IMG/VR virus record: IMGVR_UViG_2617270976_000007
Span: 1 to 6,849 of that record
Origin: a virus
Taxonomy: Duplodnaviria; Heunggongvirae; Uroviricota; Caudoviricetes
DNA: 6,849 nucleotides
Direction: 5' to 3' (one strand)
Below the pieces are notes generated by a model. That model was given only the letters and a program-made list of their open reading frames with translations. It was not told where the DNA came from and ran no database searches. Position 1 is the stretch's first letter; the number at the start of each line of letters is the position of its first letter. Below are positions 1-6,849 of this stretch, one piece after another. The position numbers were made by a program, and so were the translations under genes.

Positions 1-237
1 CTGTCACCCTTTGACGTGGTGATATGGATGACGGATGGCTGGCCGCTGTATGAATCCCGCCTGAAGGGAAAGCTGCACGTAATCAGCAAGCGATATACGC
101 AGCGAATTGAGCGGCATAACCTGAATCTGAGGCAGCACCTGGCACGGCTGGGACGGAAGTCGCTGTCGTTCTCAAAATCGGTGGAGCTGCATGACAAAGT
201 CATCGGGCATTATCTGAACATAAAACACTATCAATAA
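1..237 (+). CDS. insB: IS1 transposase InsB (InsAB' C-terminal portion), 5'-partial; start lies outside the window
   Basis: Frame-1 translation from base 1 reads [78 protein letters not shown], then stop TAA at 235-237. This matches the IS1 InsB C-terminus; the ORF-track Met at 16 is internal. Confidence 0.9.
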
Positions 238-252
238 GTTGGAGTCATTACC
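1..252 (+). mobile_element. IS1 insertion sequence, right-hand portion (window starts inside the element); ends with the IS1 terminal inverted repeat at 230-252
   Basis: Frame 1 encodes the C-terminal part of IS1 InsB; the element ends with ...cactatcaataagttggagtcattacc, the IS1 right end as I remember it. Bases 1-252 are the exact reverse complement of 6570-6821. Confidence 0.93.
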
Positions 253-278
253 TCATTTTTCAGATGGTGGAAAGAACC

Positions 279-2281: not shown

Positions 2282-2497
2282 ATGTACCAGATGGAAAAAA
2301 TCACAACAGGTGTGTCATACACCACGTCAGCGGTGGGAACGGGCTACTGGTTCCTGCAGTTGCTGGACAGGGTTTCCCCGTCTCAGTGGGCGGCAATAGG
2401 CGTGCTGGGGAGTCTGCTGTTTGGGCTGCTGACATATCTGACTAACCTGTATTTCAAAATCAGAGAGGACCGTCGTAAGGCTGCACGGGGAGAGTAA
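2282..2497 (+). CDS. S: Class II holin (pinholin) of the phage 21 S21 / EssQ type, 71 aa, with dual-start motif
   Basis: [71 protein letters not shown] has two hydrophobic segments and the charged C-terminus [13 protein letters not shown] typical of S21-like pinholins. Met1 and Met4 give the holin/antiholin dual start. GGAG lies upstream. The 106-aa ORF-track version (2177) runs through the terminator and is not the real start. Confidence 0.9.
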
Positions 2498-2501
2498 TTC
2501 A

Positions 2502-2846
2502 ATGACTCAAAACTATGAACTGATTGTGAAAGGGATCCGCAATTTTGAGAATAAAGTTACGGTAACTTTAGCGTTACGGGACAAAAAACGCTTTGACGGT
2601 GAAATTTTTGACCTGGACATCTCGCTGGACCGTGTTGAAGGTGCCGCGCTGGAGTTTTATGAGGCAGCAGCCAGAAGGAGCATCAGACAGGTCTTCCTGG
2701 ATGTTGCTGCCGGGTTATGTGAAGGGGATGAGCAGTCGCCGGAAAAGCGCCCCGTAATTTTAGAGGCGCAGGATGTGTTGATAACCTACAGAGGAAAACT
2801 ACCGGGAATAATTACGGGTTCTCTGAAGAGTCCGCCGAAATGGTAA
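2502..2846 (+). CDS. Small conserved lysis-cassette protein, 114 aa, at the position ydfR (DUF1327) occupies between essQ and rrrQ in Qin-type prophages; function unknown
   Basis: ATG at 2502 is 4 nt after the holin stop, with GGAGAG 7 nt upstream, which implies translational coupling. Placement between pinholin and SAR endolysin matches the essQ-ydfR-rrrQ order. Sequence identity to YdfR was not verified. Confidence 0.65.
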   Translation: MTQNYELIVKGIRNFENKVTVTLALRDKKRFDGEIFDLDISLDRVEGAALEFYEAAARRSIRQVFLDVAAGLCEGDEQSPEKRPVILEAQDVLITYRGKLPGIITGSLKSPPKW

Positions 2847-3084
2847 TTTTACCAGCATATTTTTCATCCAGTAATACAGCAAGCCGCCTGAAAGAGTCTT
2901 GTTGTTCCTGAGACCATTTGGGATTGCATGATTCAAACTGGATTGATGCCAGCGTTGATTGCATCTGTTCCCTTGGAATTGAGAATGCCAGATATGAGAA
3001 GGCGACGGTAAGGGTATTCACGTCTTCCCGAAGCCTAGAAATGCTGTCGAGCAACTCCTGTAGAGAAATGGTGTTATTGTCCAT
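2812..3084 (-). CDS. Hypothetical 90-aa protein encoded antisense inside the lysis cassette; its 3' end overlaps the previous gene by 35 bp
   Basis: Minus-strand ATG at 3084 is preceded by GAGGA with 6-nt spacing (ATCATGAGGATTATTTATG). Translation MDNNTISLQELLDSISRLREDVNTLTVAFSYLAFSIPREQMQSTLASIQFESCNPKWSQEQQDSFRRLAVLLDEKYAGKITISADSSENP is helix-like with a balanced composition. The segment is AT-richer than the flanking lysis genes. No homolog recognised. Confidence 0.4.
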   Translation of the reverse strand: MDNNTISLQELLDSISRLREDVNTLTVAFSYLAFSIPREQMQSTLASIQFESCNPKWSQEQQDSFRRLAVLLDEKYAGKITISADSSENP

Positions 3085-3189: not shown

Positions 3190-3735
3190 ATGAACGCAAA
3201 AATCAGATACGGCCTGTCGGCTGCCGTTCTGGCGCTGATTGCCGCTGGTGCGCCTGCGCCTGACATTCTCGACCAGTTTCTGGATGAAAAGGAAGGTAAC
3301 CACACCACGGCATACCGTGATGGTGCGGGTATCTGGACCATCTGCCGCGGTGCCATCCTGGTGGATGGCAAACCTGTCGTTCCGGGCATGAAGTTGTCGA
3401 AGGAAAAATGCGACCGGGTTACTGACATGCAGATGCGTCAGCGTGATGTTGCTGCGCTCGATGCAAAATACACGAAGGAGTTAGCTGATGCGAAAGCTGA
3501 AAATGAAACTCTTCGCGCTGACGTTGCCGCTGGTCGTAAGCGCCTGCGTATCAACGCCACCTGTCCAGGTCCCGTGCGTGAAGCCACCGGCACCGCCCGC
3601 GTGGATAATGCAACCGGCCCCCAACTGGCAGACACCGTTACACGGGATTATTTCACCCTCAGAGAGCGGCTGATGACGATGCAGAAGCAACTGGAAGGGG
3701 CGCAGGAATATATCCGTACTCAGTGCCTGAAATAA
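3190..3735 (+). pseudogene. In-frame fusion of SAR endolysin R (RrrQ-like, N-terminal ~76 aa) to the i-spanin Rz C-terminal periplasmic domain; deletion junction near 3419-3424
   Basis: Residues 1-76 (MNAKIRYGLSAAVLALIAAGAPAPDILDQFLDEKEGNHTTAYRDGAGIWTICRGA...KEKCDRV) match the RrrQ/R21-type lysozyme N-terminus, including the SAR-like Ala/Gly-rich segment and the E-x8-D-x5-T catalytic spacing. From TDMQMRQRDVAALDAKYTKELADAKAEN onward the protein matches lambda Rz up to its C-terminus ...LEGAQEYIRTQCLK. The lysozyme C-terminal lobe and the Rz N-terminal membrane anchor are missing. Confidence 0.8.
3488..3673 (+). CDS. Rz1: Rz1 outer-membrane lipoprotein (o-spanin), embedded in the +1 frame of the Rz portion
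   Basis: MRKLKMKLFALTLPLVVSACVSTPPVQVPCVKPPAPPAWIMQPAPNWQTPLHGIISPSESG has a signal peptide with lipobox VSAC and the proline-rich mature region, closely like lambda Rz1. AAGGAG sits 7 nt upstream of the ATG. Confidence 0.85.
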   Translation: MRKLKMKLFALTLPLVVSACVSTPPVQVPCVKPPAPPAWIMQPAPNWQTPLHGIISPSESG

Positions 3736-4544: not shown

Positions 4545-4721
4545 AATGTTTCCCCATATTCAGTGTTGCTGATTTGTATTATCTGAAGTTGCTTTTACGT
4601 TAATTTGATGCAGATCAATTAATACGATACCTGCGTCATAATTGATTATTTCTCGTGGTTTGATGGCGTACACACATGTTGTGATAAACCTTATATAGAT
4701 GATAATCATTATCATTTTCGT

Positions 4722-4932: not shown

Positions 4933-5481
4933 ATGAACGTCAATAAGAAAAAACTGGCCGATATTTTTGGCGTTGATGTCAGGACCATCACCGCCTGGCA
5001 GAGTCAGGGGTTACCACTAGTTTCTGGTGGAGGGAAAGGGACTGAATCAGTTTTTGATACAACTGCTGCCATTCAGTGGTATGCGCAGAGGGAAGCTGAT
5101 ATTGAAAACGAAAAACTCCGTAAAGAGATCGAGGATTTGAGGGCTGCCAGCGAATCAGACCTTCAGCCCGGCACCATTGATTACGAACGTTACCGACTGA
5201 TGAAGGCACAGGCCGATGCACAGGAGCTGAAAAATGCTCGTGAGGAAGGCCTTGTCCTCGAGACGGAGTTATTTACCTACATCTTTCAGCGAGTGGCACA
5301 GAATATATCAGGGATCCTTGTCCGTGTCCCTCAGACACTGCAGCGTAAATACCCTGATATATCACCCGTACATCTTGATGCTGTGAAAACTGAAATCGCG
5401 AAAGCATCCGATGTGGCTTCTGAAGCCGGTGAGAATGTGCGCAGGTGGATTGATGATTTCAGACGAACTGAGGGCGGCTAA
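4933..5481 (+). CDS. nu1: Terminase small subunit (lambda Nu1 / NohA family), apparently full length, 182 aa
   Basis: [42 protein letters not shown]...[48 protein letters not shown] aligns along its length with lambda Nu1 (MEVNKKQLADIFGASIRTIQNWQEQGMPVLRGGGKG...). It sits directly downstream of cosB and its stop (TAA 5479-5481) overlaps the start of the next gene. Confidence 0.9.
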
Positions 5482-6103
5482 TTCTGCAGGAGCGATAGCA
5501 ACCGGCCTCCTTGCGCTAAAAATTCCTGTCCCTCTGACGACAGTTCAGTGGGCAGATCGACATTATTACCTTCCGAAAGAGTCATCTTACACCCCGGGGC
5601 GGTGGGAAACACTGCCGTTTCAGGTTGCCATCATGAACAGCATGGGGAATGACCGGATCCGCACTGTTAATCTGATTAAATCTGCCCGTGTTGGTTATAC
5701 AAAGATGTTGCTGGGAGTGGAGGCTTATTTTATTGAGCATAAATCACGCAACAGCCTTCTTTTCCAGCCCACGGATTCTGCTGCTGAAGATTTTATGAAA
5801 TCTCATGTGGAACCCACGATCAGGGATGTGCCGGTTTTACTCGATCTTGCACCGTGGTTTGGGCGTAAACATCGTGATAATACCCTCACGCTGAAACGTT
5901 TTTCATCGGGCGTGGGCTTCTGGTGCCTGGGCGGGGCTGCCGCTAAAAACTACCGTGAAAAATCCGTGGACGTGGTCTGCTATGACGAACTTTCCTCGTT
6001 CGAACCGGATGTCGAAAAAGAGGGTTCGCCAACCCTGCTTGGGGATAAACGTATTGAGGGCTCTGTATGGCCCAAGCCGCCGTGCAGGAGAACCAGCGAG
6101 TGA
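5453..6103 (+). pseudogene. A: Terminase large subunit (lambda gpA family), N-terminal ~216 aa only; truncated by an internal deletion with the junction near 6077-6080
   Basis: ...VQWADRHYYLPKESSYTPGRWETLPFQVAIMNSMGNDRIRTVNLIKSARVGYTKMLLGVEAYFIEHK...GFWCLGGAAAKNYREKSVDVVCYDELSSFEPDVEKEGSPTLLGDKRIEGSVWPK matches lambda gpA residues ~35-205. Similarity ends after GSVWPK and the frame stops at 6101-6103, whereas full gpA is about 640 aa. Start codon is uncertain (5453, 5435 or 5411, all in frame). Confidence 0.85.
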
Positions 6104-6569
6104 TGGGGATCCTGACATGCCAGGAAGCGAAAGGACGTGAACAGCTTGCCACGATGCTGGCAGGGCAACAGGGCATGAGCGTTGAACAGGCCCGGGCGAT
6201 TCTGGCCGCGGCGGCACCGCAGCAGCCGGTGGCATCCGCGCAGAGTGAAGCCGATCGCATTATGGCGTGTGAAGAAGCGAACGGTCGTGAACAACTGGCA
6301 GTAACGCTGGCGGCGATGCCGGAGATGACGGTGGAAAAAGCCCGCCCGATCCTGGCTGCTTCACCGCAGGCGAATGCCGGACCATCACTCCGTGATCAGA
6401 TCATGGCCCTGGATGAGGCAAAAGGGGCTGAGGCGCAGGCTGAACAGCTGGCTGCCTGCCCGGGAATGACCGTGGAGAGCGCCCGGGCTGTGCTGGCTGC
6501 GGGATCAGGTAAGGCAGAACCGGTCTCTGCATCCACAACCGCCCTGTTTGAACATTTCATGGCGAACCA
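6079..6569 (+). pseudogene. Fragment of a repeat-containing phage protein (three ~45-aa tandem repeats; possibly the C-terminal region of a head protease/scaffold-type morphogenesis protein); 5' end set by the deletion junction, 3' end interrupted by IS1
   Basis: Frame-1 translation contains three related units: RVMGILTCQEAKGREQLATMLAG..MSVEQARAILAAA; RIMACEEANGREQLAVTLAAMPEMTVEKARPILAAS; QIMALDEAKGAEAQAEQLAACPGMTVESARAVLAAG. The last codons (VMTPTY, stop) are IS1-derived, so the native C-terminus is lost at 6570. Functional assignment is a guess. Confidence 0.4.
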
Positions 6570-6849
6570 GGTAATGACTCCAACTTATTGATAGTGTTTT
6601 ATGTTCAGATAATGCCCGATGACTTTGTCATGCAGCTCCACCGATTTTGAGAACGACAGCGACTTCCGTCCCAGCCGTGCCAGGTGCTGCCTCAGATTCA
6701 GGTTATGCCGCTCAATTCGCTGCGTATATCGCTTGCTGATTACGTGCAGCTTTCCCTTCAGGCGGGATTCATACAGCGGCCAGCCATCCGTCATCCATAT
6801 CACCACGTCAAAGGGTGACAGCAGGCTCATAAGACGCCCCAGCGTCGCC
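6570..6849 (-). mobile_element. IS1 insertion sequence, right-hand portion in reverse orientation (extends beyond the window); terminal inverted repeat GGTAATGACTCCAACTTATTGAT at 6570-6592
   Basis: 6570-6821 is the exact reverse complement of 1-252; starts with the canonical IS1 terminal repeat and encodes InsB on the minus strand. Confidence 0.93.
6585..6849 (-). CDS. insB: IS1 transposase InsB (InsAB' C-terminal portion), 5'-partial; coding continues beyond the window edge
   Basis: Minus-strand translation ...[87 protein letters not shown], stop at 6585-6587; identical to the InsB fragment at 1-237. Confidence 0.9.

Follow-up and report, generated by a model that had tools for sequence, protein, structure and literature searches.

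How an open reading frame that begins as a phage lysozyme comes to end as the i-spanin Rz, and whether its product is a working protein or debris, is the question raised by a 6,849-bp stretch of DNA (hereafter the window), which is the whole of contig JNQT01000097.1 in the draft E. coli assembly GCA_000704325.1. Judged by its gene content, the window is a piece of a lambdoid, Stx-phage-like late region lying between two IS1 ends:

1–253, plus strand: left IS1 end at the contig boundary
279–2132: SASA-family sialate esterase gene
2282–2497, plus strand: S21-type pinholin gene, 71 aa, intact (Pfam PF04971, 9e-33, profile positions 1–63 of 64)
2502–2846, plus strand: YdfR-family (DUF1327) gene, between the holin and the endolysin
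2812–3084, minus strand: 90-codon antisense ORF, WP_000369850.1, hypothetical
3190–3735, plus strand: chimeric ORF, 181 aa (KDY11485.1 / WP_113707146.1)
after the chimeric ORF, minus strand: YlcI/DUF3950 gene
4933–5481: Nu1, followed by a truncated terminase large subunit gene and an S49 peptidase/scaffold gene fragment
6074–6075 (context 5411–6591), plus strand: second deletion junction, ~4.0 kb, 2-bp overlap, out of frame
6569–6849, minus strand: right IS1 end, inverted relative to the left copy

The gene order matches the conserved lytic module of Stx-type phages, in which a SASA esterase precedes a pinholin and a SAR endolysin, the latter by prediction (PMC8136144); there were no stx genes within the 6,849-bp window, and an Rfam scan over the same length returned no matches. 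The pinholin is full length in the ORF translation, begins MYQM with the M1/M4 dual start, and is WP_000284510.1, the same protein as in the intact parent genomes described below. The antisense ORF sits between the YdfR-like gene, whose 3' end it overlaps, and the endolysin gene; the parental prophages conserve this ORF and have it annotated (WP_000369850.1), and its product had no Pfam match. Farther downstream, both parents carry an IS3-family transposase or remnant between the YlcI-like gene and nu1; at the corresponding 4647–4665 this is absent from the window, which here resembles the uninterrupted state. At the edges, the IS1 termini at 1–253 and 6569–6821 are 100% identical and inverted, with the right copy extending to 6849; since both ends are IS1 termini, the contig evidently breaks inside repeated IS1 copies.

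The chimeric ORF and the features within it are as follows:

3190–3420, plus strand: lysozyme-derived part, codons 1–77, an N-lobe fragment (100% nucleotide identity to an intact 177-aa gene)
3211–3261, plus strand: SAR-like segment, residues 8–24, GLSAAVLALIAAGAPAP (hydropathy and composition)
3292–3339, plus strand: catalytic motif E35-x8-D44-x5-T50 (regex match)
3419–3421, plus strand: deletion junction, TTA, a 3-bp microhomology (754 bp gone relative to the intact prophage)
3421–3735, plus strand: Rz-derived part, parental residues 52–155 (domain map of PMC5295617)
3488–3673, plus strand: Rz1 o-spanin gene, 61 aa, intact, embedded in the +1 frame (Pfam PF06085, 1e-19)

A sequence-only reading of this DNA had proposed that a deletion joined an endolysin N-terminus in frame to the periplasmic domain of Rz, giving a 181-aa protein, and both the Pfam domains and an exact comparison with the parents bear this out. 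Phage_lysozyme (PF00959) matched chimera residues 33–85, covering just profile positions 2–51 of 125, and Phage_lysis (Rz; PF03245) matched residues 72–179 over profile positions 18–125 of 126 (E = 5e-46). Megablast with the ORF as query found dozens of matches at 100% identity in 5,426 complete E. coli genomes; among the matches listed, all were in two pieces with a span of 1,299–1,300 bp, annotated "lysozyme" and "lysis protein", and these split matches are the intact parental arrangement. When the ORF was compared base by base with two intact parents, NC_017646.1 and NZ_CP030768.1 (locus L002), its first 232 nt matched the lysozyme gene exactly and its last 317 nt the Rz gene. At the protein level, exact comparison with NZ_CP030768.1 showed residues 1–77 to be residues 1–77 of lysozyme WP_000992072.1 and residues 78–181 to be residues 52–155 of Rz WP_001082539.1. 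The endolysin origin claimed earlier for the N-terminal 76 aa thus holds by identity to WP_000992072.1, but the fragment is 77 residues long. Mapping of the junction, which the reading had asked for, was done against the intact parents and also resolved what was lost: the 754 bp comprise lysozyme codons 78–177, the 298-bp R–Rz spacer, and Rz codons 1–51, that is, the transmembrane domain (TMD) together with 25 residues from the start of coiled-coil 1 (the first half of CC1). The ORF carries 0 substitutions since the deletion, both halves being 100% identical to intact copies. As for the frame, the parental Rz start lies 832 nt downstream of the R start, and Rz is therefore read in frame +1 with respect to R. 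Any deletion of length 1 mod 3 with one end in each gene joins the two; the in-frame join is a 1-in-3 outcome, no more than the chance expectation.

By its identity, the lysozyme-derived part comes from an R21-like, Stx-phage-type SAR endolysin. Its residues 8–24 are weakly hydrophobic (Kyte-Doolittle mean 1.77 vs 2.95 for the parental Rz TMD) and 59% Gly/Ala/Ser/Thr, being rich in Ala and Gly, with the basic residues K4 and R6 upstream. SAR domains are defined as weakly hydrophobic N-terminal segments with one to three basic residues before them (PMC9239132), and residues 8–24 are compatible with a predicted SAR domain. In an alignment, E35, D44 and T50 lined up with the equivalent residues of the solved endolysin 7m5i. 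Both the SAR-like segment and the E-x8-D-x5-T residues named in the sequence-only reading are therefore present, the former by the hydropathy of residues 8–24 and the latter by the regex match and the 7m5i alignment, and its statement that the lysozyme C-terminal lobe is gone was likewise correct: parental residues 78–177 are deleted, and the complete fold of N- and C-lobes is absent. No muralytic activity would be expected from the chimera despite its catalytic residues, because the whole C-terminal lobe is missing. A cleavable signal peptide in place of the SAR segment was also considered. Proline at +1 blocks signal peptidase I, and as both Ala-x-Ala sites of the segment (AGA↓P and APA↓P) have Pro at +1, we infer that this candidate is ruled out.

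On the Rz side, the chimera keeps the distal part of coiled-coil 1, the hinge, coiled-coil 2, the C-terminal domain, and both Cys residues of Rz. In lambda Rz the counterpart of parental residue 52 is T52; by lambda numbering, residues 52–153 are kept and CC1 residues 27–51 are lost. The Rz-native N-terminal transmembrane anchor is absent, and a foreign SAR-like segment stands at the chimera N-terminus. The earlier claim that the Rz anchor is gone is right as regards the native residues 1–51, which are deleted, but the anchor was not simply lost, for the SAR segment takes its place; with the N-in/C-out SAR segment of the lysozyme in that position, the chimera is predicted to retain an Rz-like type II topology. 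Mutational work on Rz indicates that its TMD is only an anchor, the role of which an artificial TMD can take over, that the proximal CC1 tolerates proline (Q36P and A50P being functional), that lysis-defective missense mutations concentrate in residues 57–88, and that none of the lysis-defective alleles tested was dominant negative (PMC5295617). Measured against that map, the chimera lost only replaceable or tolerant parts of Rz and retains the mutationally sensitive ones (CC1 57–88, the hinge, CC2, and the C-terminal domain). A single-sequence AlphaFold model of the chimera had one unbroken helix (residues 71–121) running over the junction at low confidence (pLDDT 50.8), and was used solely as a weak hint of helix continuity; a mixed lysozyme/Rz protein alignment was left out of the prediction, as it forces non-homologous N-termini together. 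Since the sensitive Rz parts are kept, an N-in/C-out anchor has been gained, and the predicted helix crosses the junction, some residual spanin-like or Rz1-binding activity is conceivable. The embedded Rz1 gene, which the sequence-only reading described as untouched, is indeed nucleotide-identical to the parental gene and encodes a full-length protein with a signal peptide, its lipobox Cys, and a proline-rich mature domain; we identified the lipobox VSAC (LVVSAC), KPPAPPAWIMQPAP, and an AAGGAG ribosome-binding site 5' of the ATG. This protein aligns with lambda Rz1 over its whole length.

We consider it highly probable that the ORF is a recent, neutral, one-off product of a microhomology deletion, in a prophage that other deletions and IS1 are also taking apart. 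In the scheme we propose, a lambdoid, Stx-phage-like prophage lost 754 bp between two TTA trinucleotides in one deletion, which would by chance have had a length that restored the frame, so that the lysozyme start codon would now read on to the Rz stop. This event would have left no functional endolysin, as only ~40% of the lysozyme fold would remain and the C-terminal lobe, which supplies the opposite wall of the substrate cleft, would be gone; it would also have left no canonical i-spanin, with the pinholin and Rz1 staying intact. The lysis cassette is very probably inactivated and canonical lysis disabled, as the earlier reading had anticipated, given the deletion of the lysozyme C-lobe and of Rz 1–51. 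If made at all, the chimera would be inserted N-in/C-out via its SAR segment, and its Rz distal coiled-coil and C-terminal domain would be displayed in the periplasm, where binding to Rz1 might still be possible.

The distribution of the junction agrees with a single, local origin. We searched with a 71-nt probe centred on the junction, counting as a match any place that covered ≥80% of the probe, and obtained 0 matches in the 5,426 complete E. coli genomes, 0 full matches in 50,697 phage records, and 0 full matches in 72,556 plasmid records, with half-length matches only in each collection. Exact junction strings of 39 and 24 nt were not present in the GTDB representatives (185,579 species, one genome each), and the 24-nt string was found neither in 241 million metagenome records nor in the IMG/VR viral contigs. 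The exact protein is the lone member of its 90% cluster among ~15 billion proteins and is recorded on one contig. The sequence-only reading had asked whether the same fusion recurs in related genomes, and the junction was found in no genome collection searched; it had also named, as a refuting outcome, a one-off deletion with no expression and no phenotype, and as far as the allele is concerned a one-off is what we found, a singleton in every collection searched. Both halves still being identical to many intact copies, the allele appears to be recent and strain-specific.

Fusions of the same general kind have arisen elsewhere. A protein homology search identified at least three further E. coli proteins with both Pfam domains:

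P0003, 202 aa: lysozyme to ~residue 135, then the last ~67 residues of Rz
P0005, 119 aa: lysozyme to ~residue 78, then the last ~41 residues of Rz (from Rz ~115)
P0004, 310 aa: full lysozyme reading through into Rz, then the Rz1 frame

Their junctions differ from that in the window, and by this measure they are independent events and not copies of the window allele. P0003 and P0005 are each on a short draft contig, and neither junction was present in the 5,426 complete E. coli genomes. Rare alleles, differing junctions, and the lack of these two junctions in complete genomes argue that such fusions arise sporadically without spreading, and repeated, non-spreading deletions are a signature of neutral or mildly deleterious decay and not of a selected architecture.

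The second, ~4.0-kb deletion runs from the terminase large subunit gene (at ~codon 220) into the S49 peptidase/scaffold gene, with the terminase ORF stopping at 6103; the head-tail joining protein, the portal and the C-terminal part of terminase went with it, and it destroys terminase, portal, and protease. The junction at 6074–6075 was not found in the 5,426 complete E. coli genomes. The left IS1/esterase junction was found in one complete E. coli genome, razor3 (NZ_CP176051.1), where a simple IS1 insertion separates an iraM-like gene from the esterase gene and the Q antiterminator is still present upstream. Farther downstream, the lysis region of razor3 belongs to another mosaic, in which R and Rz are intact, and razor3 therefore gives no date for the deletion. 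With respect to expression, a promoter scan found no plus-strand sigma-70-like site near the chimeric ORF, the counts being at the level of shuffled sequence. The parental cassette relies on Q-antiterminated late transcription from ~5 kb upstream, and in the window contig IS1 intervenes.

The suggestion in the sequence-only reading that so exact an in-frame join is unusual for simple decay is not supported by these results: the join is a 1-in-3 event, the allele is a singleton, and its flanks are 100% identical to intact parents; in addition there are the out-of-frame 4-kb deletion, the two IS1 copies, and the other sporadic fusions. Neutral decay, rather than an adapted gene, is the most likely account of the chimera.

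Among the alternatives, the one that keeps most of its standing, while still improbable, is that the junction is an assembly or sequencing artefact that is not in the isolate, having arisen when short reads of a genome that has several similar prophages were assembled as a draft. The chimera is known from one 6.8-kb contig of one draft assembly only, P0003 and P0005 also come from short draft contigs only, and no such junction was found in complete genomes. The 3-bp overlap at the junction is, however, far below the overlap or k-mer length of any assembler, and the flanks are collinear, for 3.1 kb and 1.2 kb, with a single parental prophage, which is the pattern of a genuine internal deletion; moreover, drafts vastly outnumber complete assemblies, so that rare alleles are to be expected there.

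A second alternative, which we judge slimmer still, is that the deletion accidentally created a SAR-anchored i-spanin or Rz1-binding tether: a functional surrogate in which the SAR segment would stand in for the Rz TMD and a ~50-residue lysozyme fragment for the proximal CC1, paired with the intact Rz1, and which would work when another prophage or a superinfecting phage provides the endolysin. The replaceable TMD and the proline-tolerant proximal CC1 (PMC5295617) suit such a role, as do the retention of Rz 52–155 with both Cys residues and the C-terminus beside an intact Rz1, a periplasmic length (157 residues) that is at least that of native Rz (~130), and the low-confidence prediction of a helix unbroken over the junction. 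SAR anchors, however, are held in the membrane by the proton motive force and are released by pinholins (PMC9239132; PMC6116005). Depolarisation by the pinholin would free the SAR anchor (PMC9239132) just when a spanin needs its hold on the inner membrane, and since the SAR anchor exits the membrane on depolarisation, the chimera would make a poor inner-membrane anchor for membrane fusion. Half of CC1 is gone, moreover, and the lysozyme fragment is unlikely to serve as a rigid helical spacer; the allele, a singleton, shows no sign of selection, and the prophage is otherwise defective.

The least probable alternative is that the chimera, tethered or released, is a decoy that binds Rz1-type o-spanins of lambdoid phages, whether co-resident or superinfecting, and weakens their disruption of the outer membrane, for although the C-terminal interaction region of Rz is kept and heterologous partners exist (a median of 3 related lysis loci per E. 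coli genome), this role is disfavoured by the finding that tested lysis-defective Rz alleles were not dominant negative (PMC5295617), the junction is not recurrent, there is no promoter nearby, and expression would hinge on late transcription, itself tied to induction.

Were either of the last two alternatives true, the chimera would be a spanin with an inner-membrane anchor that the membrane potential switches, or a decoy modulating lysis by co-resident lambdoid phages, and a functional chimera would give a sharper definition of the requirements for an i-spanin. Under neutral decay, which we prefer, it has little biological weight and is a further example of defective prophages losing lysis genes by microhomology-mediated deletion, in which one such deletion in three gives an in-frame chimeric ORF that appears designed. 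It does provide a natural construct for spanin work, in which one may ask whether a SAR anchor and a non-Rz spacer can stand in for Rz 1–51.

The chimera was compared with known systems. With the R21-like/Stx-type SAR endolysin WP_000992072.1 it shares residues 1–77, including the SAR-like segment and E-x8-D-x5-T, and a neighbouring S21-type pinholin, but it is without residues 78–177 (the C-terminal lobe, 60% of the Pfam profile), and is not countable as an endolysin. With the lambda-type i-spanin Rz (WP_001082539.1 and lambda Rz) it shares the distal CC1, hinge, CC2, C-terminal domain, both Cys residues, and the embedded Rz1, but it is without the native TMD, linker 1, and CC1 27–51, its N-terminus being a SAR segment plus a lysozyme fragment. 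P0003, P0004, and P0005 are rare alleles in which these two adjacent genes, with their Pfam domains, are likewise combined in a single ORF, with different junctions. The lysis-gene remnants in the cryptic prophages of E. coli K-12 (e.g., the rzpR pseudogene of Rac) offer a further parallel, since there too lambdoid lysis cassettes of defective prophages are truncated or decayed; unlike the window ORF, those remnants are lineage-fixed and are not known to include in-frame R–Rz chimeras. An R–Rz chimera is a known kind of event.

Such products are easily overlooked in annotation. NCBI automatically named the chimera "lysis system i-spanin subunit Rz" despite the missing Rz anchor and the leading lysozyme fragment, and P0003, a different fusion, was automatically named "lysozyme"; automatic names hide such fusions, and caution is warranted where "i-spanin subunit Rz" is applied to a product that has a lysozyme fragment and no Rz anchor.

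Two further observations concern rearranged or deleted lysis-gene DNA. A related E. coli lysozyme of 253 aa (P0002) has its first ~76 codons duplicated in tandem, so that the SAR segment and catalytic motif occur twice, and its break (…KEKCD) falls at almost the same point of the lysozyme as the window deletion and P0005; the near-coincidence of these three breaks hints at a fragile site around lysozyme codons 75–78. The parental spacer that is deleted in the window (L002 6535–6832, 298 bp) holds, within the lysis cassette, a strong hairpin resembling a terminator, AAAAACCCCGTTTGTTGGCACCAAGCGGGGTTTTGTGTTT, and, beside the spanin genes, an unannotated hydrophobic ORF of 32 codons for a putative small membrane peptide, MAEKLSTWKFILIWLVFVIMASGYFIGQIRWW, which stops immediately upstream of the Rz start.
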